This document shows positions 1,204-38,805 of a DNA stretch of 40,580 bases, piece by piece (position 1 is the stretch's first letter; every line of letters starts with the position of its first letter). Made by a program: the position numbers and the translations under genes. The stretch covers positions 1-40,580 of the forward strand of contig CAZVIT010000002.1 of assembly GCA_964626865.1 (NCBI GenBank), in the 5' to 3' direction. The DNA comes from an uncultured archaeon. Lineage in GTDB: Archaea; Thermoplasmatota; Poseidoniia; MGIII; CG-Epi1. Under the pieces are notes generated by a model, which did no database searches, was not told the origin of the DNA, and saw nothing but the letters and a program-made list of their open reading frames with translations.

Positions 1204-3654
1204 ATGAATCGTATTTCATCACTAGTGATAGCGCTGATGCTGACCGTTACCACAATGGGTACTGGATCCTTAAAAGAGAATAACTCTGAAGAACAAATTT
1301 TTGGAACAAATACAGTTGCCTTAGATGGGGCAAATGACACTATTGACCGAACAAATACTTTCCCTTTTGATGTTCTCTTTAACGATTATCATGAATATCA
1401 TGAAGTGGTTTCTGAACTACAAATGTTTGCAGCAGATTATCCTGACATCGTTGAAATTTATACGCTTACTGATATGATTCCTGCAGGTGCAACTTGGCAA
1501 GGAAACGAAATTTACGGAGTGAAAATATCAGATAATGTAGCTAATGAACCTGATTACTATGATGATCCTGATGAAGAAACATTGTTCATTGTAGGAAACC
1601 ACCATGCCAGAGAATGGATGAGTGTGGTTACACCATTATATTTTGTTTATTACTTAACTCACTTCTATGGAATGGAGCCAACTGATAACGATGGAGATGG
1701 ATTAATCAATGAAGACATGATTGATGGAGTTGATAATGATGGAGATGGGGAACAAGGAGGGAGAGTTGATGAATTTGGTAGAGCACTATTCGATGGAATT
1801 GATAATGATGGTGATGGAATTATTGATGAAGGTATTGACGAGGATCCTAGTGAAGCTAGAGTTACTTACCTAGTTAATCACAGAGAAACATGGGTCGTAC
1901 CTATACTAAATCCTGATGGCTACATGTATGATAGAGAAGATCCGGATAGACTCTGGAGAAAAAATATGCGTGATAATAACGAAAATGATCGTTACGGTGA
2001 CGCGTGTGACGGAGTTGACATTAACAGAAATTATCCCTTTGAATGGTCACATAATACTCAACTTACTGCATTAATTGGTGATGATTTAGAACCTGAATTT
2101 ACTGTTGATGATGACAACCCCTGCTCAGACGTTTATCATGGTCCTAGAGATCAATATGATGATGACGGAGATTGTGATGATGATCCGGCAACAGCTATAC
2201 TATGTGATACTCCTATAACTGGTGGATTAGGGGACCAAAATACTCAAACTGGTGTAGATGAGGACCCACCTGATGCTCAGCACACAGATGATGATAATGA
2301 TGGAATGGTTGATGAAGATAGAGAGGGTGGCTTCTCAGAACCTGAAACTCAAGTAATAGAATATCTAACTTGGAGATTGGATATATACGAAGACTATCCA
2401 CAAGATAAATATTTAGAGGATTATCAAAAAGATATTAAAGATGGCGGATGTGCACCAAATTATGACGCCGCCTGTACTGCAACATTTAGACCCAATTGGC
2501 CTGATATGTTTGTAACAAATCTTGATGGAAAAGTCATAAGAAATTATAGAACTGAGGCGCATGATATGAAACATAATTTTATGAATTCTATATCATACCA
2601 TGCCTATTCTAACTTGTACATTTGGCCATGGGGTTACAAGGATCAGGATCCTCCACACGAATTATATATGGAAAATCAAGTTAAACCATTAATGAATGTT
2701 ACAGGATATGGAAATTGGAAGGATGATGGAGGTTACAAGGTATCTGGAGATATTAACGATTTCCTTTATGGAATGCAAGGTTCATTCTCCTACACTGTTG
2801 AATTAAATGCTGGCACTCAAGGTGGTCTACAAGGAGGCTTCCATGCTGACCCTCTTTTGATACGTCCTACTGTTAGAATGCATGTATTAACTAATATTCA
2901 TTTCTTAGATAAATCTCCCGAGGCAAGAATTGGTCAGATGTTTGGAAGTTATAACCAATTAGGTTCAGATGGAATACATTCACCTGAAGAAACAATGATG
3001 CCGAAATTGAGCATTTTATCTTCTAAAGGTGATGCTGTAAGTGTAGGATTTCAATCAGATACTGCATTTAGTTTTGATAAATATTACTCTAATGACAAAT
3101 TCCCTATACAAGTCTTAGTAGAAAATGCCCAATTTATGAAAAAAGATTCAATCTTCCTAAAATATCGAAATGAAAATATGAATGAAGATGAATGGGCTGA
3201 AGTTCCTATGGTTTGTGTACAAAATTGTGATCCAAAATCATATGACGGTTACAATGCATCTGCTGGATTCTCAATACCAAAACGTGATTCAATATACAAA
3301 GGATATATTCCTGAAACCGGAGAATCCATGAATGTGCAATTTTATGCTGTAGCTCAGGATTCAAGGTTAGCGGATCAAAATTTTGGAGGATATGTAACTA
3401 CTGGATATGGGCCTTATGAGCCAATAGAAATTTTTGTTGATGATATAATTGGTTTCGGAAATCCTATTGTTGATGCAATCGCAGTTATGTCCATGATGGG
3501 ACTAATGTATGGAGTTGTGTGGGGAGGATTATACAAAACAGTTGGAATCGCTACTGAAGCTGAAAGAAGAAAAAAGGAAGAGGATTTAGAAGAAGAATCT
3601 AAACCAAAAAGAGCAAATAAAAAATCTGTAGCTGCAATACCTAAGGTAAAATAA
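1204..3654 (+). CDS. Secreted, C-terminally membrane-anchored zinc carboxypeptidase (peptidase M14 family) with acidic Ca2+-binding-type insertions
   Basis: 816 aa. M14 signature residues appear in order: GNHHAREW (HxxE zinc ligands, His 1603-1605 and Glu 1612-1614), NPDGY, WRKN, INRNYPF, SYHAYS (third zinc His) and YTVELN (catalytic Glu). There is an N-terminal signal-like hydrophobic segment, a C-terminal TM helix (AIAVMSMMGLMYGVVWGGLY) and a Lys/Glu-rich tail. Confidence 0.85.
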   Translation: MNRISSLVIALMLTVTTMGTGSLKENNSEEQIFGTNTVALDGANDTIDRTNTFPFDVLFNDYHEYHEVVSELQMFAADYPDIVEIYTLTDMIPAGATWQGNEIYGVKISDNVANEPDYYDDPDEETLFIVGNHHAREWMSVVTPLYFVYYLTHFYGMEPTDNDGDGLINEDMIDGVDNDGDGEQGGRVDEFGRALFDGIDNDGDGIIDEGIDEDPSEARVTYLVNHRETWVVPILNPDGYMYDREDPDRLWRKNMRDNNENDRYGDACDGVDINRNYPFEWSHNTQLTALIGDDLEPEFTVDDDNPCSDVYHGPRDQYDDDGDCDDDPATAILCDTPITGGLGDQNTQTGVDEDPPDAQHTDDDNDGMVDEDREGGFSEPETQVIEYLTWRLDIYEDYPQDKYLEDYQKDIKDGGCAPNYDAACTATFRPNWPDMFVTNLDGKVIRNYRTEAHDMKHNFMNSISYHAYSNLYIWPWGYKDQDPPHELYMENQVKPLMNVTGYGNWKDDGGYKVSGDINDFLYGMQGSFSYTVELNAGTQGGLQGGFHADPLLIRPTVRMHVLTNIHFLDKSPEARIGQMFGSYNQLGSDGIHSPEETMMPKLSILSSKGDAVSVGFQSDTAFSFDKYYSNDKFPIQVLVENAQFMKKDSIFLKYRNENMNEDEWAEVPMVCVQNCDPKSYDGYNASAGFSIPKRDSIYKGYIPETGESMNVQFYAVAQDSRLADQNFGGYVTTGYGPYEPIEIFVDDIIGFGNPIVDAIAVMSMMGLMYGVVWGGLYKTVGIATEAERRKKEEDLEEESKPKRANKKSVAAIPKVK

Positions 3655-24581: not shown

Positions 24582-24659
24582 GCTCGCGTGGTGTAGCCTG
24601 GCCTATCATCTCAGCCTGTCGAGCTGAGGACTCGGGTTCAAATCCCGGCGCGGGCGCCA
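24582..24659 (+). tRNA. tRNA-Asp (anticodon GTC), genomically encoded CCA
   Basis: Folded by hand. Acceptor stem GCTCGCG/CGCGGGC (one U-G pair). D-arm GTGT/TCAT with G10-U25 and a GG-containing loop. Anticodon stem TCAGC/GCTGA with loop CTGTCGA (anticodon GTC at 24618-24620). 4-nt variable region. T-arm TCGGG-TTCAAAT-CCCGG. Discriminator G at 24656, then CCA. The stems are GC-rich against an AT-rich background. Confidence 0.9.
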
Positions 24660-24713: not shown

Positions 24714-27700
24714 ATGCGAGGACAAAAATATCAGGCATTGATTGTTGTTATTTTATTACTTACAGCTCTACCTTATTCTCCCTTCTTATCACGAGCTTCA
24801 AGTATAGAAAAAGACCCATTAGCTGAAAAAGATTTAGATGGTGATGGGATACCTGACCCACCCGTAAGAGATAGTGATGGAGATGGGCTATCTGATGATT
24901 ATGAAATCGCTTTAGGATTTGATCCCAATGATTTTGATATGGATGATGATGGAATCTCCGATTTGATGGAGCAGCAAATGTGGGATGACTTGAAGAATTT
25001 AGACGAAATACCTGACAGCATGGAGGATTTGTATGATTGTGAAGGTGATTTAGATGGAGATGGAATTACCAATTGTATGGATCCTGATGCCGATGGCGAT
25101 GGATTTTCTGATGCTGATGAGATGGCAGATTCAGATTTTGATGGAATCCCAGATATGTATGAAAATATGATAGATCACTTGGATCCAAATAATCCTGATA
25201 GTGATGGTGATGGAATCCCTGATATGGATGATCAAGATCCACCGTTACCTGAATGGGCTGAGGATATGGCAAATAAAAATGACTGGACACCTCAACCTGA
25301 TTCTAATGGAATGGGTGGATTGGAGGGCTTTTATCCTCTTGCCGTACTTGCTGCAGTTAAATTTACTGTAGTGTGTGATAATTGTGGGGAACCTACTTCA
25401 AATCCTCAATATTGGAGAACTGCTGCAAAAATAATTTATGATAATGGATATGATTCAAATACTGATAGTTACACTCGTAGCCAATGGTGCCCTGCTCCAG
25501 GATGCGAACAATATGATATAGAAACTGGAGTTGTTGAAAATCCTGGTTATTGGTCAACGGGTTCTAATCCATATGGCTATGATTACTTAGTTACACACCC
25601 AGATGTTACTAGCCAACAATATCAATACACTATGACTTGGATTATGCCGGTACAGGGATATCTGTCTACATCATTGCATACTAATAATGTTTTCATAAGT
25701 AATAGCGTTACTATGGACAGTTCTTTTAATTTGAAAGTTGACGGATATGCTCAGGCATATACTTTCACAATGACGGAATATAATATTCCTGAGAATGTAA
25801 AACAAGCTGCTAATGCTCCAGAAAATTTTCCTTCAGAATTTACTGAATTGCCACAATTCCCAGTGAGACCTGGACCCGATAATGATGTTTACGATTTAGC
25901 TGCTTCAATAACAGAAGGTAAAGATACTGATTATCAAAAAGCTGAAGCTATAATGTATTATCTAAGAAACAATTATTATTACAACATTAACGGAACCTTA
26001 ACTCCTGATGGTGAGGATTTTGTTGATTATTTCTTATTTGGAAATGGAGATACTGACGGAAAATGTACTAATTTTGCTTCTGCGTTTACAGTTTTATCAA
26101 GAATAAGTGGAATTCCTACAAGATATGTAGAAGGAAATGGTCCTGGAGAAGTAATTACTCCTGAAGGTTGGCAAAATAGTGGATATGGAGAGAGTACTGG
26201 TTACCAAATAGAAGAGGATACAAGAATCATTACAATGCTCAATGGGCATGCCTATGCCGAAGTGCTGTTTGATGAAATTGGTTGGATAACTTTTGAACCT
26301 ACTTCATCCACAACTTGTCCTACTTGTGATCCCAATGGCGCTACAACCACTGGAGATGATGATACTGTAGTTGGCAATGGAACTCAACCTGGAACTAACT
26401 ATGAAATAACTGATAGTGATGGCGATGGGCTGAGTGATGAATACGAAATAGGAATAGGTACAGACCCTAATAATCCAGACAGTGATTATGATACCTTACC
26501 TGATGGTGTGGAATCTAATTCCGGTGTTTTTGTAGATGTAGATACTGACACTGGAACAAGCCCCTTACTTGCCGACACTGATGGTGATGGACTGGAAGAT
26601 GATGATGAAATATTATGTAGATTATACTCACTTAGTGGTAAATTTTGTTCACATCCGCTAGACTCAGATACTGATAATGATGGATTGAGTGATGGAGATG
26701 AATACTACACTTATTCAACTAATCCTATCGATAATGACAGTGATGATGACAATCTTACTGATGGGTTAGAAATAGGAATTATTGGGAATATTTTTGAAGA
26801 GGATTATAATTCAAACTCCTGCTCTACAAGAAATGGTGAAAGTGTATATGTAAATTGCAAAGAAACCTGGCAGCCTGATGAAGATGGATCGTCTACAACT
26901 AACCCACTAAACCCAGATAGTGATAGTGATGGAATCGATGATGGTGATGAAGATAAAAATAATAATGGAAAGTTAGATGATGGAGAAACTGCCGCAGATT
27001 TATTTGATACTGACGGAGGAGGAAGAAGCGATTTTGAAGAATTGTTTACTGATTCAACTGATCCCAGAGATTCTGAAGATGATATTGGAGATACTGATGG
27101 TGATGGCCTTCTTGACCATCGAGAAGAAGAATTAGGAACTAATCCTACTTTAATGGATACTGATGGTGATGGGATAAATGATGGGGATGAAGTTACGCTA
27201 TACTTTACAAATCCTCTAGAAGAGGATAGTGATAGTGATGGGTTAACTGATTTTGAAGAAATTTATGCTTTAGGAAGTTGTGAATGGATTTCTCCAAAAA
27301 CATCTATTTCTTGCGATTACAATGAAGATGGTATAAGAGACGAGAATGACGGAACTGATCCTAATGATCCAGACACAGATGGAGGAGGAACTTATGATGG
27401 ATTTGAAGTTGATTTAGATGGAACTAATCCGCTTAACAACAATACCGATGATGTTCCTGCTGATGAAAGAGATACTGATGGTGACGGCTTAACCGATATG
27501 GAAGAAATTAACATTTACAATACAAATAAATTTAACAATGATACTGATGGAGATGGTCTCTTAGATGGTGACGAAGTAAATACTTATGACACAAAACCAG
27601 ATAAAAAAGATACTGATGGAGATGGATTAAGTGATTATGATGAAATATTTACTCACGAAACAAAACCTGATGAAAGTGATTCTGATGAGGATGGCATTGA

Positions 27701-30700
27701 AGATGGGGAAGAAATTAATGATCATGAAACGAACCCTAATTTGCCAGATACAGATGGTGATGGAATAGAGGATTATGACGAGATTTTTACCTATTTTACA
27801 AACGCTTCAAACTCAGATACAGATGGTGATGAACTAAGCGATGCAACCGAGATTAACATCTATTTTACAAATGCTACAAAATCAGATAGCGATGATGATG
27901 GACTAAGTGACGGGGAAGAAATTACTGGTACAGGTGGATATTTTACTAATGCTACAAGAAATGATACTGATGGAGACGGACTAGATGACGGACTAGAGAT
28001 TAATACCTATTTTACAAATCCTACAAGTAATGACACTGATTCTGATGGATTACTTGACAAATGGGAACTAACTGGAAACTTCCCTAGTTGTAGCTGGATA
28101 AATTCAGATACGGGAGTTACTTGTGATTTTAATGGGGATGGGGATCAAAATTGGCTTGATGGAACTAATCCAAATAATTGGGATACAGATGGGGGAGCTG
28201 TAGGCGATGGTGTGGAAATCTATGTGGACGAGAGCAATCCTAGGAATGGCTCAGATGATGATACTAATGATTTAGATCAAGACGGAGATGGGCTAACTGA
28301 TGGTCAAGAATTTGTACTTGGAACAGATAGATTGGATCCTGATACCGATGGAGATGGATTGAACGATGGGCATGAAGTAAATAATCTTACAAGTAATCCT
28401 CTAAATGCTGATACTGATGGAGATGGACTAGATGACGGGGATGAAATTAATATTTATTTTTCCAATCTCACATTAGAGGATACTGATGGAGATGGACTAA
28501 ATGATGGGGATGAAATCAACTACTATTATACCAACGCTACAAACAATGATACTGATGGAGATGGCCTAAATGATGGAGAGGAAGTTAATAATTATGATAC
28601 TAATCCTAATTTAGTAGATACTGATGGAGATGGTTTAAGCGATGGGGAGGAAGTTTTAGGTTCTAATGATGGATGGATATATTGTGCACAAGAAGATGAG
28701 GTTTGTGCCTTCAACGGGACTAAATATGTCCGATACGGAATAGATGGAACCTACAATGAAGGTTGGATTAACAATGGTGTTGACTGCTCAAATGATGTTT
28801 TTGGAGATCCGGTTCCTGGAGTTGAAAAAGAATGTTACTACATTTCTCCCGGATATACTTCTAATCCAAATTTAAAAGATACTGATGGAGACGGTTTAGA
28901 AGATGGAGAAGAAATTGATGATTATGGTTCAAATCCAAATCTTGAGGATAGTGATGGTGATGGACTAAATGATGGAGAAGAAGTTAACGATTATAACTCA
29001 AATCCAACATCACTTGATTCAGATGGAGATGGCCTTGGAGATGGCAGTGAAATAAACAATTATGACACGGAACCTGGAAATAATGACACTGATGGCGACG
29101 GACTAGATGACGGACTGGAGATTTTTACCTTTTTTACAGATCCAAACGATACGGATAGTGATGATGATACCTTAAATGATGGTGATGAAGCTCTTGTATA
29201 TGGTTCAGATCCTTTAGATAAAGACACAGATGGTGATGGTCTTGAAGATTACAACGAAACTGCGGTGCATCTTACAAATCCTACCAAGTCAGACACTGAT
29301 GATGATGAATTAAATGACTTTGTAGAAATCTTCACTACACTTACAAATGCTTCGAACTCAGATACTGATGGTGATGGTCTCTTAGATGGAGTTGAAACTA
29401 ACACAGGAACATATGTAGATAATGAGGACACCGGAACCGACCCAAATGATCCTGATAGTGATAATGATGGATTAAGTGATTCTTATGAAATAAGTGAAAA
29501 TCCTGCTTATACTGATCCATTGAATTGGGATACTGATGGAGGAGGAGTTAGTGATGGTGTTGAAATAATAACTGACGAAACTAATCCAAATAATTTGGCT
29601 GATGATAATGTAGCTGCAAGTGATACTGACGGAGATGGGCTAACGAATGGTGAAGAGGAAGTTTATGGAACTAACGTTACAAATCCAGATACAGATGGCG
29701 ATGGTCTCTTAGATGGATTTGAAGTAGATATGGTTGAATCTGACCCACTTCTTGAAGATACTGATGGAGACGGACTAGATGATGGTGTTGAATGGACTCT
29801 AACAGATACAGACCCCACTAATAGTGATAGTGATGGAGATCTATTGAGTGATGGAGATGAAAATATCACTTATGGAACAGATCCAAATAATTGGGACAGT
29901 GATGGAGATGGATTGAGGGATTATGCAGAAATATTTACTTATTTAACTAATCCACTAAACGTAGACACTGATGATGATGAATTAAATGATTGGTATGAAG
30001 TTAACTACCATCTTTCGGATCCTAATGACAATGATACTGATGATGATGGATTAAGTGATTATGAAGAAGCAGTTACCTATGAAACTAGCCTAAAAAAATC
30101 AGACACAGATGATGATGGAATAGAGGATTACGACGAAGTTTTTACCTATTTTACAAATCCCACAGTATCTGATACTGATGAAGATGGTTTAGGTGATGGT
30201 ACTGAAATCTTTTATTGGAATGATTACGTTACAGATCCTCTAGATGAAGATACTGATGGAGATGGATTAAATGATGGGCTCGAAATTGACCTTGGAATTA
30301 ACCCTTTAGATGTGGATAGCGATTCTGATGGACTTGATGATTATTGGGAATATATTAGAAGCTCTGAAGGTTATAACTATGACGCAGGAGATAATGACAC
30401 TGATGACGATGGAACCTTAGATGGTGATGAGGATTTAGACACTGATGGATTAACAAACCTTGAAGAAATAAATACTTATTTTACAGATCCTTTAGAGGTA
30501 GATTCAGATTCGGATAATCTTTGGGACGGGGACGAAATTAACCCTTGGACAATAAAAAAAGATGGAGTAAATAATCTATATAATTACCCTTCAGACCCGA
30601 CTCTTCCAGACTCTGATGGAGATGGATTAAATGACTATGATGAAGTCACTCCTTCAAATGATACTCTTGAATCTAGAACAAATCCCAAGGATAGCGATAC

Positions 30701-33700
30701 TGATAATGATGGTTTAACTGATTATTATGAAATAAGTTGGTATTGGAACATAACTGGTGACGATAACACGCCACGTCTTTACTACATGAATATACAAGGA
30801 TGGAATACATCTGATCCAAGAGAAGAAAATACTGATGGAGATATATGGGATGATGGTGATATAGATGAAGAAAATCCTGTTTACGGATATTTCGAAGATG
30901 AAGATGTGGGGTGGGGAAGTCCTCCAGCAAGAGCTGGAACTCCTACACTTCCTCCTGAGGAAGTCTATAAAGATCAAGAGTTCATATGGTCTTTTGGACC
31001 TTTACTTAATCAGTCCTCGGGGGAACCATATATAGGAGTAGTAATTGATGCATATCTTAACGAGACTGAGGATTCCGATAGCATTTCACACAAAATAGGA
31101 AGTGGAATAACCGATTCTGAGGGATTCATGGAAGTTGTATGTAATGGAAGTTATTTAAAATCACAAATAAAAGCTGGCAATTGGTTCTTACAATTATATC
31201 GCGAAGAACAGTTCATAGAACATGCAAATGTATCAAAAAGGATACTGGAAGAATGGAGAGATGCACCCCCTAGAGGCATTAACATAACTGGAAATACAAC
31301 AATAGACTCTACAATACCTACAACTGCTGCAAGTTTGAAAACAACGATAATAACTGGAACTTTATTTGAAGACGACGGAATTCCTATTCAGAATGATTTT
31401 GTATCTCTTGAATTTGATAATATAACTTATTACGATTTAACAAATGAAAATGGTATTTTCACAATTGAAATTAATACTCCAGATGTAGAAGATGCTTATT
31501 ATGATCTAAATCTAAAATATAATGGAACTGAACATTTAACTGAAAAAATTGAAAATACTTCTATTAGAATAATTAATGCATCCGTTGAATTAAGATTTGA
31601 TGAGTTAAATGATATAACCTTTAATTTAGAAGAAGAATATAACATAAAAGGCACCATATTTGGTGATGAAGGTGCACAACCTACTGGGACTATTGAACTA
31701 AGATATGGAGATAATTATATTGGAGAAGCGATTGTTGTTGGAAATCAGGCCTGGGATATTAGTTTCGCGGTACCACATAATGCTTCATGGGGAAATACCA
31801 TACTAACTGCAACTTATTCGGGTAATGAAATTTATCCTTCTGACATAGTTGTAGATGATATTATAATAAAAGGAGAAAGTAACTTAACATTAGAAAAAAT
31901 TACTTCATTAAGAACTAATTTAATAAAGATAAAAGGAAATTTAACAGACCATAATGGCCAAATTATTGAGGATAAATTAATTACTCTATTCTTTGACAAT
32001 AACCCACTTGGTTCAGTTAGAACTGGAAGTGATGGAAGCTATGTTTTCTCACAGAATTTATCAACTGAATCTGCAGGATTACATCAAATTAAAGCTGTTG
32101 TTTATGGTAGCACTACACTTTCATCTGCTGAAACAATAAATAATCTAACTTTATTAGCTACACCAAATTTAATATTTGACGATTCTGCAAAATGTAAAAA
32201 CACGGAAGAGTTTACAGAAAAAATTTGTAAAGCTGCTAGAGGAACCGAATATAACTTATCAGGAATACTTGTAGATGAATTAGGCAATATAATGCCTAAC
32301 ACAACTATTGACTTCTTCAGTGAAAATATAGGAATGGCACCTCTTTCTAAAACCGACTCCAATGGAGAATTTATTTACAATGAAGTTGTAAATGAAGGGC
32401 AAACTGATATTTTTACGATTGATATTACAATAGAAGAATCATACATATTAGAAACTGTATTTGAACTAGATATTATTCCACAAACAAGCGTAATTCTCAC
32501 CTTAAAAGTAGACAATGAAAACAAAAAGGCATACAGAGGTGAAAATGTCAATTTGTCAGGTTCTCTTGCTGATAATTCAGGTACGCCCCTCAATGATCAG
32601 GTTGTAGGAATTCTTATCAATTCTAATATTGTTTATACTTCTACAGACGAAATGGGCCTTTACACTCTTAATTATCCTTTAGTTTCTAATTATGAGTTAG
32701 GTGAAAGCAATGTTAGCATAATTTATAACGAAACAGATTGGTTTTTAGGTTCTACCGAACACAATGTCTTTATTGTTTCTGGAACTACTACATTTGAGGC
32801 TGTAAATGTTGAAGGTGATTGGTTCAATAATGAATTAAGGCGTGGAGGTGATATCAATGTTTATGGAATATTAGTAGACGACCTAGGAAATCGTGTGAAT
32901 GACAATATTTCAGTTAGCATTGGGAGCTCAGAACTAGCAACGGTATTTACGAATGAATCCACATTTATTTCAACAGGAACTATTCCCGAGGATTATAGAA
33001 ACAATCATACTTTGGAAATTGCCTTTATGGGAAGCTCCTACCTAGATGGAACTCAATACAAGAGTAAGCATTCTATATTAGTAGAAAGTGAAATACGATT
33101 TGATTTTGAACCCCAAAATGTTTTCCCAGGAGATATTGTCAACGTTTCCGTTTGGTTAGAAGAAGATGATGGCAGCCCTATTCCTGATTCAGAACTGGCA
33201 GTTATAGTAAATCTATTTTATGAGAAAAATATTGAAATGGACACATATCTTGAATATAATTTAACTACCGATCAGGATGGTTTTGCTAAATTTAATTTTG
33301 AATTCCCCGAAGATGCAAGTAGCGCAAGTATAGAAGCTGCATTCTCTGGAGGATATATTGATGCATATGATGATACTCCACAAGAAACTGAATTAACATC
33401 TACAAACGTTGCTATTAGTATTACAAAATCTCCTGAAGCAAAAGAGCCTTTTGATATTAATAAGTATTTACCCCTATTCATTGGAATCCCTGCTGCACTT
33501 TTGGTAACTGCTTACTACTTATACTGGACACAAAAACACAAATATGAAGTTCGAAATTTGATTAAGCAAATGCAGAAAGAATTGAATAAAGACGAGGATT
33601 ATAGACAAATTATAATTAAATCTTATCATCAATTATTAAATATTCTTGATAGATATGGATTCATTAAAACTAAGACTCAGACCGTCAGAGAATTTACAGA

Positions 33701-33959
33701 TGTTATGCGAACTGCGTTACCTATACCTAATCAAAGTGTTAAATTATTAACTTCATTGTTTGAAATTGCAAGATACAGTGGAATAAAACCCAAAGTTGTT
33801 GATGAATTTGGAATGGAAATGATTGATGGATCATACAATATCTGGTGTGTAGAAGCAATCAACAATCTCCATGAAGTTGAAATAGAGTTGAACAAAGGAC
33901 TCAAAGAAGGGAAAGTTTCTAGATTCACAAATATATTTGGAATGAGGTCTGCTAAATGA
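24714..33959 (+). CDS. Giant (3,081 aa) surface protein: signal peptide, transglutaminase-like core, a very large array of thrombospondin type-3 (TSP3_bac-like) Ca2+-binding repeats, Ig-like (CarboxypepD_reg-like) repeats, single TM helix, cytoplasmic DUF4129-like tail
   Basis: One uninterrupted ORF. The signal-like N-terminus is [19 protein letters not shown]. An N-terminal cluster of 7 DxDxDG loops lies at about 24831-25240. The transglutaminase-like core lies at about 25896-26303: [26 protein letters not shown] (Cys 26064-26066), NGHAYAEV (His 26247-26249) and GWITFEPT. The main repeat array is at 26410-30880. About 8 repeats of the type G.L.D..G.PI....V.......T.T...G.F lie at about 30981-33440. 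The TM helix [21 protein letters not shown] is at 33465-33527. The tail carries a DUF4129-like signature (TVREFTDVM...[12 protein letters not shown]). Confidence 0.9.
26410..30880 (+). repeat. In-frame tandem array of roughly 57 thrombospondin-type-3-like Ca2+-binding units (basic unit 23 aa / 69 nt, consensus DTDGDGLxDGxEhxxYxTNPxxx)
   Basis: Hand count of D-x-D-x-D-G-type loops in the translation. Perfectly phased 23-aa units occur, for example at 28400-28620 ([23 protein letters not shown] / [23 protein letters not shown] / [23 protein letters not shown]). Near-identical DNA segments recur, for example 27964-28020 versus 29091-29150. Confidence 0.85.
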
Positions 33960-35383
33960 GAAGAACATTCCGTGAAAGATATGGCTCAAAACTTTTTTCT
34001 CTTTTTATCATTCTTATGATGGTTACTGTCGTTTATCCTACCTTAATTACAAATGCTAAAAATCCTTCTCAACTCTCTGCATATGATGACGATTGGAATG
34101 ATATTTCAGATTTTGCTGCAGATATTGATGAAGATCAAAACGGTAAACATGTCATGAAAACTATTGTTTCAAGACCTGCAATCATTAACAAAATATCTGA
34201 AATTGAAAAAAATACAACAACTCAAACTATTAATGTTAATTCAACTGTACTCGTCATTATTGGAGTAGAAAGAAGCTATTCTGAATTTGATTCGAATGCA
34301 ATTTATAATTTTGTTAAATCTGGAGGAAAAGTTATCATTGCTGACGATTCAGGTTATGGAAATTCTGCATTTTATGGTGAAATGGGAACTTTAGAGATTG
34401 GTGTTAAACTAAGAACTAATATCGTTCAAGAAGGTTGCCAGCCAACCCAAGACTCGGGATTACTGGCTCAAGGTTTAGATTTTGCAGGATATGATGGAAG
34501 TAGTGGTAGTAGTCCAAAATGTAAACCTGCTCAATTATATGATTCAAACCATTGGGATGAACCTATACACCCCAAAAATAATTCAATTGCTATAATCGAT
34601 GCTGATGTGCCAAGAATGGGTTTTAGCGGTCAATTAATGATGAGCTCGCCTGGCGCCCTTACAATTCAAAGTGGAGGAGCTGCTGAAGGTTTAGTTTGGT
34701 CAAGCCAACAAGCATTTATCGATTATAACCAGGACCAAATAGGAGGAAAAGGAGAAGGAACATACAGAGATGACTCCACTAATGGTGTAGAAGTTGTTGC
34801 TGAAGCTAATATTGGAGATGGAAAGGTTATTTTTATCTCAGATACAAGCATATTTACAAACGAATATTATGATGATTTAGATAACCGAGACTTTATTTTG
34901 GCAATGGTAAACTACATTACAGAAGGTGAAAAACATACTCTAATTTTTGATGAAAGTCGCCATATACAATCTGACATACTCTCACTTGTTTATGTCCAAT
35001 TATTTGGAATATTAGGATATATTAGTAATAGCGAAACTTTAGGAATCATTTTTTTAGGTTCAATTATTTTAATTTTACAACTAGTCATGATGAGAGTAGA
35101 AAACCCAAAACCTTGGAGGCACCTTTTCAATATATATGAGGGGAGATTATCTCGATTTAGGGTTCCTCATGCACACTATACTCATCCAGATACGATTAAA
35201 GAAATATTTATCGAAAAAGTAAGAATTGAAAATGGATATACAAGAGAAGAGTTTGGGATGCTATCTCAAACAAAAATTGAGGAACTGCTGCATGATCCTC
35301 TATTAATTAAATTTATGATCAATGACGATCGAAGTATGACCTTAAACGAGGTTGAAGAAGCTATAAAAGGATGGAAAAAATAA
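33956..35383 (+). CDS. DUF4350-like (GldG/ABC-type uncharacterised transport system-like) bitopic membrane protein
   Basis: 475 aa. An N-terminal TM anchor ([19 protein letters not shown]) is followed by an extracytoplasmic domain with DUF4350-type motifs ([38 protein letters not shown] and [33 protein letters not shown]). A second TM helix ([18 protein letters not shown]) precedes a ~100-aa cytoplasmic tail. The start forms an ATGA overlap with the giant gene. Confidence 0.6.
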
Positions 35384-36450
35384 TGGGCCTATTTGGAAAA
35401 AAGAAAACAAAAGAAGAGCAAGAACCAACTCCTGAAGTTGAGACTGAAGAACAAAATGATGGTGTACAAACCTACATGATGGATCCTTCATTACAAGAAA
35501 CGCACGACATGATGCAAGCGGTTTTAGCTGAGGCTGAACAAGTTGTTATGGGTAAAAGACCTATACTTGACTTAACTGCCGTGGGAATACTTGCTGGTGG
35601 AAATATTCTCTTCGAAGATAATCCAGGATTGGCGAAAACTCTTTTAGCTAATACCTTCGCACAAGCATTAGGCATTAATTTTAAACGTGTCCAATTCACA
35701 CCTGACCTTTTACCTGCAGATATTACTGGAATTTATATATGGAACCAAAAAGACCAAAAATTTGAATTTAGAAAAGGGCCATTATTCTGTAACTTATTGC
35801 TTGCAGATGAAATAAATCGAGCCCCCCCAAAAACACAAGCTGCATTATTGGAAGCCATGCAAGAACATCAAGTTACTATTGAGGGTGAAACCCATATTTT
35901 ACCTGAACCTTTTGTTACACTAGCTACACAGAATCCTATTGAATCTGAAGGTACCTATCCATTACCTGATGCTCAATTAGATCGTTTTATGATGAAACTA
36001 TCTATGGGATATCCTGGAAGGCCTATTGAAAGAGCAATACTTGTAAAACGAAAACAACGTGGAAAAGATGACCATGAACTCCAGGCAATAACTACTCCTG
36101 AAAAGCTTAGAGAAATGCAATTAAGTCTTGAGAAAGTAAGAATAGATGATTCAATTATTGAATATATTGTTGAAATTATTTACCGAACGAGAGAGGATCC
36201 ACGTGTAAAAGTAGGGTCTTCACCGAGAGGTGCACAATCTCTATTCAAGCTATCTAGGGCTCTTGCTGTTTTGAGTGGAAGAGATTATGTAATACCTGAT
36301 GACATCAAAAGACTAAGTATCTATACACTAAGACACAGGATAATTCTAAAACCTGAACCAAGAATTAAAGGTGTTAAAACTGAAGAAATCGTTTCTGAGA
36401 TTCTTGAACAAGTAGAAGTACCAACTACACAAGGACAATTAGAAGACTAG
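35371..36450 (+). CDS. MoxR-family AAA+ ATPase
   Basis: 359 aa. Walker A FEDNPGLAKT, Walker B LLADEINRAPPKTQAALLEAMQE, then VTIEGETH, LATQNP and the C-terminal lid SPRGAQSL. An in-frame alternative start at 35383 (MGLFGKKK...) would give a TAATG overlap with the upstream stop, as at two other junctions in this window. Confidence 0.92.
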   Translation: MEKIMGLFGKKKTKEEQEPTPEVETEEQNDGVQTYMMDPSLQETHDMMQAVLAEAEQVVMGKRPILDLTAVGILAGGNILFEDNPGLAKTLLANTFAQALGINFKRVQFTPDLLPADITGIYIWNQKDQKFEFRKGPLFCNLLLADEINRAPPKTQAALLEAMQEHQVTIEGETHILPEPFVTLATQNPIESEGTYPLPDAQLDRFMMKLSMGYPGRPIERAILVKRKQRGKDDHELQAITTPEKLREMQLSLEKVRIDDSIIEYIVEIIYRTREDPRVKVGSSPRGAQSLFKLSRALAVLSGRDYVIPDDIKRLSIYTLRHRIILKPEPRIKGVKTEEIVSEILEQVEVPTTQGQLED

Positions 36451-37695
36451 ATGTGGAGTAAGAAAGCTGCAGCTGTCGCAGGAGGTGCTATCTTCTTGAC
36501 ACTCGCAGGATTGATTAGATTAAATTATCTTTTCATAAGTGCTGGACTAGTAATGCTAACCTTTGTTGTAATATCAAGTTTCTTAGATGTTTGGATGCCT
36601 AATGTTAAAATTAGGAGAGAAACAACATCTGATAATATTTTTGAAAATGGAACTATGTCTGTCAAATTTATAATTAAAAATACAGGATTAGGAATTGGAT
36701 TTGTAGAAATATATGATAGTCTGCCACCTCAGGCTAGAATAATTAAAGGATCAAATTACACTTTACTATACATGAAGCCTTGGCAAGAAGTTTCTTTTGA
36801 GTATTCACTGAAATTACCACTAAGAGGACATTATCATTTAGGCCCAGTTAAGATGCGTGTAAAGGACGCTTTTGATTTATTTTACAATGAAAGATCAGAA
36901 AAGTCTATACATAGCTTCTCTGTATTCCCTCAAATAGAAGTTCTGGAAGACCAAATTATTACTTCTCGATCTCCGAAATTACTTTCTGGGGCAATGCCTT
37001 TAAATGTAATTGGTACAGGAACTGAATTTTATTCATTAAGAGAATTTGTTCCTGGCGATTCACTTCGTTCAGTCAATTGGAAGGCTTTAGCTAAAAAAGG
37101 TAAGATGATGGTCAATGAAACGGTTAGAGAAGATGTAATGGATGTTATCTTACTATTAGATGCAAGGGAAATCTCTGCAGTAGGAGGAGGTAATGACACT
37201 CCTCTTGAAATGTCCTGTAGAGCTGCTGCAACGTATGCCAAACAACTACTTGATGAAAGAAATAATGTTGCTCTTATGGTTTATGGTGAAAGTATTGAAA
37301 GAGTTGATTTGGACCGAGGTGAACATCATCTTTTCAAAATTTTGACTGCATTATCAAGTGCTAAACCTCAGGGGAATCTAAAATTAGAAATTGTAATGAA
37401 GGATTTGCTACCACACCTTCCAAGTGGATCGCCAATTATTCTTTTTAGTTCACTCGATGATGATCATACTATTGCTGAAGCATTTACAAGCACAATTAGT
37501 AGAGGATTTACAATTACCACTATTTCACCATCTAGCTTAGACTTTGAGGAAAGAATGAAAAGAATTCCTATGGAACCTTTATTGATTGCTAAAATTGAAA
37601 GAGACAACATGATTTCTGAACTTAGAAGCTTTGGACTCCAAGTAGGCGACTGGAAATATGGTGATAATGTAAATACTGCTTTGCAGGAGATGTAA
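36451..37695 (+). CDS. DUF58-domain protein (vWA-like, usual partner of MoxR), N-terminally membrane-anchored
   Basis: 414 aa with two N-terminal TM helices. The DUF58 signature is GTEFYSLREFVPGDSLRSVNWKALAKKGKMMVNE, followed by a vWA-like beta-strand (DVILLLDAR). The start codon directly abuts the MoxR stop (TAG|ATG). Confidence 0.85.
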   Translation: MWSKKAAAVAGGAIFLTLAGLIRLNYLFISAGLVMLTFVVISSFLDVWMPNVKIRRETTSDNIFENGTMSVKFIIKNTGLGIGFVEIYDSLPPQARIIKGSNYTLLYMKPWQEVSFEYSLKLPLRGHYHLGPVKMRVKDAFDLFYNERSEKSIHSFSVFPQIEVLEDQIITSRSPKLLSGAMPLNVIGTGTEFYSLREFVPGDSLRSVNWKALAKKGKMMVNETVREDVMDVILLLDAREISAVGGGNDTPLEMSCRAAATYAKQLLDERNNVALMVYGESIERVDLDRGEHHLFKILTALSSAKPQGNLKLEIVMKDLLPHLPSGSPIILFSSLDDDHTIAEAFTSTISRGFTITTISPSSLDFEERMKRIPMEPLLIAKIERDNMISELRSFGLQVGDWKYGDNVNTALQEM

Positions 37696-38805
37696 ATGGA
37701 AGAAAGCCCTGTAGAAATAAAAGCATCAAGAATACCAAAAATCGATAAAATTATAAATTACAAAGATTTATTTGGAGAATACCCCATAATATTTGCAATT
37801 AAAATAATCTCTAGTTTATCTCTAATATATGTAATTAGTGAATTTTACATTTATCATAATCCGATGGATTCTCTTGTCACTAAATATCTTGGAGATTCTT
37901 TAAAAGGTTTTGACCCGCAACCGGATGTCTTTGTTCCGTGGGGCTTTGCAGCGGGTTTTCTTTTTTATATTTTTACTATCTTTAAAGGGAAATACAAATT
38001 CTTCTTATTCATATTAATTGCTGGAAGTCTAGGCCATTATATTGCTGATCCAGCTATAGATGTGCAACAAGGTGAATATCTTATTCCCTCCAAAGTTGAA
38101 ATTGAGAATAGCGAAGAAGATGCTACAGAATGGAAATGGAAACCTGTTAAATTAATATATGATGATGTCGAAGAAACAAATAATAGAATTGATGACATAT
38201 CAGTTAGACTTACAAATATTATTTTTGGATCAATGCCCTTCTTTGGGGCTTATGGAATATGGAAGAGAAAAGGCTGGGCAATTGCTGCATCTATTGGTTT
38301 AGCAATTATTATTGGATTTCTGTATACGCCTAATTTATGCCTTGAGAATTTTGAAGAAGATTTTTGTGGGTATGACACAAAGCAAGAGGAAAAAACTTGG
38401 AGTGAGTATTTGTCAAGCGGGATTTTTATTGGCCTAGGATTTGTAATTTATATTGAATTATCATATGCTGCGATAAAATATGAAAACTATGCCGAACAAT
38501 TCAAACCTGCTGGCCTAGATGTTGCTCTCTTAACTGATGCTCAAAGAAAGAGTGTTTCTAAAACTTTGAGAACACTATTTGTGAGTTATTTAGTTAACCT
38601 CGCTGTAATTCTATTTGCAACATTTATTATTGCAGAAGTGGTAATAAATATTAACGATTATCTATCCACAAGTGATGGACAAATACAGGATTCTATCGAA
38701 TTACAAGGCCCATATGGCATTGTCTTTACTTCACTCCTATTTTTCTTATTATTAGGTATCATTAGGATGTTCATAGGTCCAGATAACAAAATTGAAGAAA
38801 CTTAG
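37696..38805 (+). CDS. Polytopic membrane protein, no recognisable family (fifth gene of the MoxR operon)
   Basis: 369 aa with about 7-8 hydrophobic helices and two acidic loops (EIENSEEDATEWKW, ENFEEDFCGYDTKQEE). The start directly abuts the DUF58 stop (TAA|ATG). Confidence 0.55.
   Translation: MEESPVEIKASRIPKIDKIINYKDLFGEYPIIFAIKIISSLSLIYVISEFYIYHNPMDSLVTKYLGDSLKGFDPQPDVFVPWGFAAGFLFYIFTIFKGKYKFFLFILIAGSLGHYIADPAIDVQQGEYLIPSKVEIENSEEDATEWKWKPVKLIYDDVEETNNRIDDISVRLTNIIFGSMPFFGAYGIWKRKGWAIAASIGLAIIIGFLYTPNLCLENFEEDFCGYDTKQEEKTWSEYLSSGIFIGLGFVIYIELSYAAIKYENYAEQFKPAGLDVALLTDAQRKSVSKTLRTLFVSYLVNLAVILFATFIIAEVVININDYLSTSDGQIQDSIELQGPYGIVFTSLLFFLLLGIIRMFIGPDNKIEET

Follow-up and report, generated by a model that had tools for sequence, protein, structure and literature searches.

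The stretch of DNA analyzed here (the window) is 40,580 nucleotides (nt) long and corresponds to positions 1 to 40,580, forward strand, of contig CAZVIT010000002.1 (GenBank assembly GCA_964626865.1) from an uncultured archaeon of Marine Group III (MGIII; CG-Epi1, Poseidoniia, Thermoplasmatota). It contains a giant open reading frame (ORF) at 24714-33959 (+), encoding 3,081 amino acids (aa), whose region 26410-30880 (aa 566 to 2056) is a long array of Asp-rich loops. An original prediction, made from the sequence alone, had described this region as an extreme and recombination-prone expansion of thrombospondin type 3 (TSP3) Ca2+-binding repeats. The Asp-rich array at this position is real and lies in one ORF, with no second ORF of at least 100 aa overlapping it on either strand in the ORF list. 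The Asp content is 22.3% in aa 566 to 2056, 15.4% in the whole protein, and 6.2% in the other 26 ORFs of the window. Comparison with related genomes showed an array of ancient origin that has kept its collinearity and its length throughout the lineage. The product of the giant ORF is a TgpA/Tgm-like membrane or surface protein of an MGIII archaeon, which database records label "transglutaminase domain-containing protein." A query with its transglutaminase region retrieved 17 loci sharing 73% to 89% identity, including single-cell genomes and long-read metagenome-assembled genomes (MAGs), and all 17 belong to MGIII (CG-Epi1 and relatives within Poseidoniia/Thermoplasmatota). The giant ORF and its parts are as follows.

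24714..33959, + strand: giant TgpA/Tgm-like surface-protein ORF, 3,081 aa (Pfam Transglut_core, TSP3_bac, Ig-like families, and DUF4129; 27 full-length MGIII orthologs)
24729..24797, + strand: N-terminal hydrophobic segment, aa 6-28, signal peptide or membrane anchor (Kyte-Doolittle scan)
24831..25229, + strand: N-terminal cluster of seven short DxDxDG loops, aa 40-172 (regular expression and hidden Markov model [HMM] matches)
25893..26300, + strand: transglutaminase-like core, aa 394-529, with C451, H512, and E527 (Pfam PF01841, E 1.2e-21)
26412..30734, + strand: central TSP3_bac array, aa 567-2007, with a degenerate tail to about nt 30869 (Pfam, regular expression, HMM, and AlphaFold2 [AF2] model)
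30891..33413, + strand: Ig-like/CarboxypepD_reg/MG4-like beta-sandwich region, about aa 2060-2900, about 840 residues (Pfam MG4, CarboxypepD_reg, Big_1, and Big_3_5)
33465..33524, + strand: C-terminal transmembrane helix, aa 2918-2937 (hydropathy scan)
33624..33785, + strand: DUF4129-like cytoplasmic tail, aa 2971-3024 (Pfam PF13559, 20.8 bits, below the gathering cutoff of 24.8)

The regular expression D.D.D[GDENTL] matched the giant protein 59 times, 7 times at aa 40 to 172 and 52 times at aa 567 to 2052. An HMM built from 23 canonical units recognized 50 central units from model position 1 and about 5 others that are degenerate or partial, and the original hand count of about 57 central units and 7 near the N terminus was therefore correct within a few units. 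The modal unit is 23 aa long, with 34 of the 49 start-to-start steps measuring 21 to 26 aa and 26 measuring exactly 23 aa (69 nt). In the alignment of the units, which gives the consensus DTDGDGLxDGxEIxxYxTNPxxx, the residues D1, D3, D5, D9, and E12 do not vary. The array holds 39 copies of the strict motif DxDxDGxxDxx[DE], whereas composition-preserving shuffles yield 0.12 on average and never more than 2. At the DNA level, the canonical units share a mean identity of 59.7% (maximum, 81%), and neighbors are about as similar to each other as distant units are (62.2% versus 59.5%). This low identity of about 60% leads Tandem Repeats Finder to underreport the array, and it detected just three short period-69 arrays. 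The loops ahead of the transglutaminase core number 4 to 7 in the 27 MGIII orthologs, and 6 or 7 in all of them except the N-terminally shorter ortholog P0014. N-x-S/T sequons are found 26 times in the array (26412-30880), 25 times in the Ig-like region, and twice in the first 566 residues, and many of those in the array stem from linkers in which TNP is changed to TNAS, TNAT, or SNLT. This distribution is compatible with N-glycosylation of a putative stalk.

Membership of the units in the Ca2+-binding DxDxDG loop family is well supported. Profile searches placed them in the Pfam family TSP3_bac (PF18884) in 16 stretches, with a score of 233.9 bits against a cutoff of 25 (E 7.3e-71) and a best stretch that covers the whole 22-position model (1-22/22), and the eukaryotic Pfam family TSP_3 gave no match at an E value of ≤0.01. 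The loops are not canonical EF-hands, as only 3 of about 55 fit PROSITE PS00018 and the helix in the structural model follows the loop only. That AF2 model covers aa 838 to 1011 (one unit, Cys loop B, a DTDGGG unit, and four canonical units) and was computed from an alignment of 19 orthologous segments. It has a mean predicted local distance difference test (pLDDT) score of 90.6 and a predicted template modeling (pTM) score of 0.70, and it shows one short helix after each loop and no other elements. The predicted 23-residue unit consists of a DxDxDGxxDxxE loop, a helix of 6 to 8 residues, and a TNP linker. A Foldseek search of the PDB returned the B domain of Bap (7C7U/7C7R) at the top (E 1e-5, 44 to 46 columns, 48% to 50% identity, root mean square deviation 0.6 Å), with thrombospondin-2 (TSP-2) and the Ca-binding domain of binary toxins far behind. 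When PDB sequences were searched with a two-unit profile, Bap again ranked first (E 1.8e-8), in an alignment to 'DYDKDGLLDRYE...DTDGDGKNDGDEVVNYKTSP', and weak matches in that search were COMP (E 0.013), TSP-2 (E 0.37), OmpA 5WTL, C2 toxin, and calmodulin and polcalcin (E 0.03 to 0.7). The canonical units have the same D1, D3, D5, D9, and E12 in all 19 orthologs, and the Gly at position 5 of the DTDGGG landmark unit is equally invariant. Mutations at loop positions 1, 3, and 12 of Bap EF2/EF3 abolish the Ca2+ response of Bap (PMC7785521). The predicted identity of the units as TSP3-type DxDxDG Ca2+ loops is thus supported by the TSP3_bac score, by Bap as the nearest solved structure, and by the invariant ligand positions.

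Among known repeat systems, the TSP3_bac arrays of bacterial and archaeal surface proteins, such as those of Myxococcus CglD and MtsC/MtsD, share the 22- to 23-residue unit of the array, with DxDxDGLxDxxE and a ...TdP linker, and the proteins that carry them are likewise large, secreted or surface-located, and Asp-rich. The array described here differs from them in that it sits in an archaeal transglutaminase/DUF4129-like membrane protein and has four conserved DTDGGx/Cys-loop landmarks. CglD, MtsD, and MtsC, which are adhesion/cohesion proteins of Myxococcus, were the best NCBIfam matches of the giant protein, all through the repeats and all below the cutoffs (for CglD and MtsC/D, 342 versus 400, 129 versus 800, and 21 versus 350), which indicates that the giant protein is not an ortholog of them. 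EF2/EF3 of Staphylococcus aureus Bap (7C7R and 7C7U), the best match among solved structures in both sequence and structure, form two consecutive loop-helix units like those of the array, and their Ca2+ dependence has been shown by mutagenesis (PMC7785521). However, Bap has two motifs within a globular domain, where they act as a switch for amyloid-like aggregation, whereas the array has about 55 in tandem without a globular context. The type 3 repeats of thrombospondin and COMP (1UX6, 1YO8, and 3FBY) consist of DxDxDGxxDxxD loops that form a Ca2+-filled wire with no hydrophobic core. Their similarity to the array is weak (COMP, E 0.013; TSP-2, E 0.37; Foldseek probability, 0.01 to 0.03), and each eukaryotic repeat has disulfides and no helix, whereas each archaeal unit has a helix and lacks Cys. 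The OmpA-family TSP3 repeats (5WTL), which are DxDxDG repeats of the bacterial envelope, were the sole PDB match of a single-sequence query, again a weak one (E 0.0056), and their linkers contain Cys-Pro ('...CPxVxGxxxxNGCP') where those of the array are of the helix-TNP type.

The canonical units are interrupted by a small set of landmarks and by one Cys-rich module, as listed below.

26820..27083, + strand: module A, Cys loop 703/715 and DTDGGG unit at aa 765, with the position of the DTDGGG unit kept in most orthologs
27270..27458, + strand: module B, Cys loop 856/867 and DTDGGG unit at aa 887, modeled at pLDDT 75-92
28080..28268, + strand: module C, Cys loop 1126/1137 and DTDGGA unit at aa 1157, position conserved
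29406..29621, + strand: module D, DTDGGG unit at aa 1606 and its lead-in, without a Cys pair
28674..28856, + strand: Cys-rich module L, about 62 aa (aa 1321-1381), four Cys, inside the linker of the unit at aa 1302

The DTDGG[GA] units at aa 765, 887, 1157, and 1606 start at nt 27006, 27372, 28182, and 29529, in agreement with the positions given by the original prediction. The two Cys-pair modules that it had located were also found in place (aa 856/867 and 1126/1137), and two further Cys pairs with equal spacing of 10 to 12 residues (635/645 and 703/715) had been overlooked. Three of the four DTDGGx modules are preceded by a Cys loop, and all are landmarks conserved in the orthologs. Cys is rare in aa 567 to 2056, where the canonical units lack it and all 10 residues belong either to the L module or to one of the four Cys loops. 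The suggestion that multiunit blocks had been duplicated holds for modules B and C, which are paralogous (48% identity over 60 aa, E 9e-18), but not beyond them. A whole-protein self-BLAST gave the identity high-scoring segment pair only, and a BLAST of fragments against the whole protein gave 45% to 58% identity at every in-register offset. In a permutation test of unit similarity at variable positions, no offset was significant, the best z score being 2.4 (10 units) against a multiple-testing threshold of 2.98, and a dominant higher-order period was evident neither here nor in the fragment BLAST. An old and diverged repeat, interrupted by fixed joints, is the most fitting description of the array.

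The L module follows the pattern W.YC..ED..C.F.G...VRYG...C.N.VFGDP.PG..KECYY and is present in 7 of the 27 orthologs, at two array positions and with unit counts unchanged. It lies six units past landmark unit G3 in the window and four units past G2 in the six other orthologs that have it, and it is absent from 10 genome-derived orthologs, including the nearest relatives of the window. A 58- to 64-aa insertion in orthologs L007 and L010 is the same cassette. Neither a Pfam search at E values of ≤1 nor a word-index homolog search gave a useful match or candidate for it, and an AF2 model from 7 sequences had a pLDDT of 55 and a best Foldseek E value of 0.14. The module was not called as a SUEL/rhamnose-binding lectin, for which there is a weak match to the motif 'NDVFGDPCxGxxK' only, together with no Pfam family and a low-confidence model.

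The copy number of the units was compared among related genomes and proved to be conserved in all 27 orthologs. The landmarks of these collinear MGIII orthologs follow one order, and the number of units from one landmark to the next is nearly identical. The common order is 7 loops, the transglutaminase core, about 7 units, a G unit, 3 units, a G unit with its Cys loop, about 9 units, another G unit with its Cys loop, about 15 units, a G unit, and about 16 units. Ten full-length orthologs from GTDB species representatives are 2,996 to 3,137 aa long and have 45 to 50 central HMM units and 54 to 59 pattern matches. The orthologs share 54% to 73% identity in the array, similar to the identity in the C-terminal Ig-like region, their alignment is collinear, and few indels of unit size or larger separate even distant members. 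Within each of four species-level clusters (at least 90% identity), the complete copies have equal lengths (two of 3,081, eight of 3,007, four of 2,996, and seven of 2,991 aa); the 2,996-aa cluster also holds two Tara gene calls of 2,988 aa, a difference of eight residues (not aligned). An independent European Nucleotide Archive (ENA) assembly supplies the other 3,081-aa copy, which is 99.7% identical to that of the window without a gap, and single-cell genomes, long-read MAGs, and a pilon-polished 1.39-Mb contig concur in lengths of 2,996 to 3,137 aa. The predicted hotspot of recombinational length variation is contradicted by these counts and lengths.

The assembly collapse that had been expected in the array was not found either. 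Exact direct repeats in 26400-30900 reach at most 27 nt, in a single pair (29291-29317 and 29963-29989), and only five 25-mers recur. Two independent Joint Genome Institute (JGI) assemblies from the same species-level cluster have contigs that begin at aa 1518 (nt 29265), beside the 27-nt repeat, which suggests that this site is a recurrent break point of short-read assembly. Fragmentation of assemblies inside the gene is therefore real, whereas collapse is not. In the long-read MAG LRMED-006 (locus L006, 9461-11956), the orthologous ORF ends after 831 aa while the contig runs about 600 nt further; this early stop is probably an assembly frameshift or stop error, or a pseudogene.

The array is also less extreme than originally supposed, as at least 20 unrelated proteins have larger arrays, of up to about 117 loops. 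Among the homologs fetched, about 117 loops were counted in a 4,839-aa protein and 100 to 107 in several proteins of about 5,000 to 5,400 aa. A search with the two-unit profile against 1.84 billion cluster representatives matched 59,089 of them at E values of ≤1e-3 and 5,944 at E values of ≤1e-30, with some proteins reaching 74 matched stretches. The MGIII array lies in the upper tail of this distribution and is the largest seen in its own TgpA-like family, but it is not exceptional among TSP3_bac proteins.

The transglutaminase-like head and the neighboring genes connect the giant protein with TgpA and Tgm. The core residues C451, H512, and E527 are conserved in 10 of 10 aligned orthologs. 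The third residue of the triad, Glu527 (26292-26294, 'TFEPT'), stands where the superfamily usually has Asp; it is Glu in all MGIII orthologs and also in those remote homologs, 9 of the 31, in which the motif could be located, several of which read FEPT/FEAT. An archaeal CTP-dependent riboflavin kinase (Pfam) is encoded upstream of the giant gene, and a cluster of four genes follows it.

33956..35383, + strand: DUF4350 protein, start overlapping the stop of the giant gene (Pfam)
35371..36450, + strand: MoxR-type AAA+ ATPase, AAA_3 (Pfam PF07726, E 6e-64)
36451..37695, + strand: DUF58 protein (Pfam PF01882)
37696..38805, + strand: 369-aa polytopic membrane protein with about 6 hydrophobic segments, last gene of the cluster (hydropathy scan)

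The 369-aa membrane protein had no Pfam or NCBIfam match. The order DUF4350-MoxR-DUF58 is repeated in a relative on the 1.39-Mb contig (L021), where a gene matching that of the 369-aa protein in size and position is also found, and DUF4350 and DUF58 are also downstream in the remote Thermoplasmatota homolog L022. TgpA of Pseudomonas aeruginosa (PA2873) resembles the giant protein in being a membrane protein with an extracytoplasmic (periplasmic) transglutaminase-like core (PMC3507681) and in having MoxR and DUF58 neighbors, and a Bifidobacterium PFNA cluster has the order fn3, MoxR ATPase, duf58, and tgm (PMC8430577). In contrast to the giant protein, TgpA/Tgm proteins have a few hundred residues and neither a TSP3 array nor an Ig-like stalk. 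The hydropathy scan found hydrophobic segments in the giant protein at aa 6 to 28 and aa 2918 to 2937 only, so that it has a single N-terminal segment instead of the multiple transmembrane helices of TgpA_N, and Pfam found no match to TgpA_N (PF11992) in it. TgpA_N is present in remote homologs P0028 to P0030 and others, and many remote homologs carry precomputed PF13559 (DUF4129) annotations. The 31 remote homologs with TSP3_bac arrays come from other Thermoplasmatota and from Firmicutes, e.g., [Eubacterium] cellulosolvens, are 2,000 to 2,680 aa long, and have 20 to 47 loops; Transglut_core is precomputed for 29 of them. The transglutaminase Cys was located in 19 of the 31, 17 of which have 4 to 8 loops before it and 16 to 40 after it, and in the remaining 2 all loops precede it.

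A tRNA-Asp(GTC; GUC) gene lies at 24582-24659 (+), 54 nt upstream of the ATG of the giant gene and on the same strand. Its position and strand are identical in 12 of 12 MGIII loci (the window and 11 orthologous loci), and it is not beside the giant gene homolog in the remote locus L022. The giant gene contains 473 Asp codons, or 44% of all Asp codons in the 40-kb window, with no enrichment of GAC (17% versus 18% elsewhere). The spacer between the two genes has a T-run after the tRNA and, about 30 to 36 nt before the ATG in all orthologs, a motif resembling a transcription factor B recognition element (BRE) and TATA box, 'AAACAATTTAAT'. Given these two elements, cotranscription of the tRNA and the giant gene looks unnecessary, and the two are probably separate transcription units. 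The adjacency of the tRNA-Asp gene may be mere synteny. The retention of the tRNA gene beside a gene with 44% of the Asp codons could instead reflect a coupling of tRNA-Asp supply to demand, and the occurrence of the L cassette at two linker sites with unit counts unchanged could mean that the array is a scaffold that gains small binding modules by nonallelic conversion. That the locus is organized in these ways beyond a plain repeat protein is regarded as unlikely.

A Ca2+-loaded stalk or adhesive surface is a reasonable reading of the array, and the reading preferred here, with a probability of roughly 0.55, is that it forms a constitutively Ca2+-loaded spacer or stalk, which may also be adhesive. 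Because seawater Ca2+ is about 10 mM, high and nearly constant, every loop would be occupied in the sea, and Ca2+ would be a permanent structural cofactor. A highly acidic chain, disordered without it, would thereby become a defined spacer that resists proteases. Should the N-terminal segment be a signal peptide that is cleaved off, the protein would be anchored by its C-terminal transmembrane helix, and the Ig-like domains together with the TSP3 array would constitute a long stalk, with the transglutaminase/cysteine-protease-like head held far out from the cell. The MoxR, DUF58, and DUF4350 partners would assemble or control the giant protein from the membrane side. Within the stalk, the optional Cys-rich cassette and the four DTDGGx/Cys-loop modules would serve as fixed joints or accessory binding sites. 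Several points weigh against this proposal. If the N-terminal segment stays in the membrane, the protein would be a doubly anchored loop and not a stalk. The pTM of 0.70 leaves the relative orientation of the units only moderately defined in the model, and the Glu in place of Asp makes the enzymatic activity of the head uncertain. We infer the Ca2+ binding, rod shape, and rigidity of this particular protein, and no experiment on any member of its family was found. The roles known for TSP3-repeat proteins are adhesive (CglD and MtsC/D, judged by their NCBIfam names, and the thrombospondin genes of MGII, as interpreted), and the array itself may therefore be the business end.

In the main alternative, the array is itself a polyvalent adhesive surface, in which dozens of Ca2+-loaded acidic loops and exposed aromatic and Asn linkers would bind particles, polysaccharides, cells, or minerals, the Cys-rich cassette would act as a lectin, and the protein would tether a planktonic archaeon to organic particles. 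This alternative is compatible with a stalk but is rated as less probable than the stalk reading. In MGII, the sister group, thrombospondin-type genes have been interpreted as adhesion factors (PMC6461757), a general remark beyond which nothing specific was found in the literature on this protein in MGIII. The best NCBIfam matches through the repeats, although below cutoffs, the weak rhamnose-binding-lectin motif of the L module, and the 26 sequons in the array point in the same direction. However, there is no known ligand, the variable positions that face the surface show no particular conservation or pattern, and the lectin assignment is unconfirmed by Pfam or by the AF2 model. The strict number of units between landmarks also suits a constraint on length or geometry better than simple avidity. 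A further possibility is a Ca2+-responsive switch like that of Bap, in which folding and unfolding of the array would signal through the transmembrane helix and DUF4129-like tail to MoxR/DUF58 or would toggle aggregation. The nearest solved relative, Bap EF2/EF3, is such a switch for aggregation (PMC7785521), and the giant protein spans the membrane, has a cytoplasmic tail, and adjoins an AAA+ ATPase operon. Yet Bap has two motifs, not fifty, and a sensor of about 55 sites would lack an obvious signal in an open-ocean planktonic archaeon surrounded by near-constant high Ca2+, which makes a switch quite improbable. The least probable view, already largely refuted, takes the array for a contingency region that is prone to recombination and variable in length, or in part for an assembly artifact. 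It would account for the many database members of the same clusters that are fragments starting inside the array, including the two that start at aa 1518 where short-read assemblies break, for the indels of unit size or larger between distant orthologs (about 25 to 35 aa in L015 and L016), and for the presence of the L cassette at two different sites. It is opposed by the equal lengths of complete copies within each cluster, the gap-free independent assembly, the agreement of single-cell genomes, long-read MAGs, and the polished contig, the equal unit counts between landmarks in 27 orthologs, and the DNA divergence of the units, in which neighbors (62%) are no closer than distant units (60%).

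Earlier work has already described the repeat family and its Ca2+ chemistry, giant surface proteins rich in TSP3 repeats from metagenomes, genes of the thrombospondin type in planktonic Euryarchaeota, and the TgpA-MoxR-DUF58 module. The new finding is a TgpA-like protein that is strictly conserved in the MGIII lineage, with fixed landmarks and an array of about 55 units. MGIII archaea are uncultured, and their cell surface is little known. A gene of about 9 kb that is conserved across the group, in genomes whose longest contig seen is 1.39 Mb, probably encodes a major surface structure, and the giant protein is a good target for metaproteomics, cryo-electron tomography, and antibody-based cell sorting. 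In addition, the poorly understood TgpA/Tgm-MoxR-DUF58 module can bear a very long stalk of Ca2+ loops, and the homologs with 20 to about 57 loops offer a natural series for probing the function of the module. For genome scans, the results advise caution in that long Asp-rich TSP3_bac arrays are common, occurring in tens of thousands of protein clusters, and that arrays whose units have diverged in DNA are neither unstable nor hard to assemble. Elsewhere in the window, an ORF for an M14 zinc carboxypeptidase (816 aa, 1204-3654, +) also carries 4 DxDxDG loops, which indicates that the Ca-loop motif is used in at least one further predicted extracellular protein of this genome.

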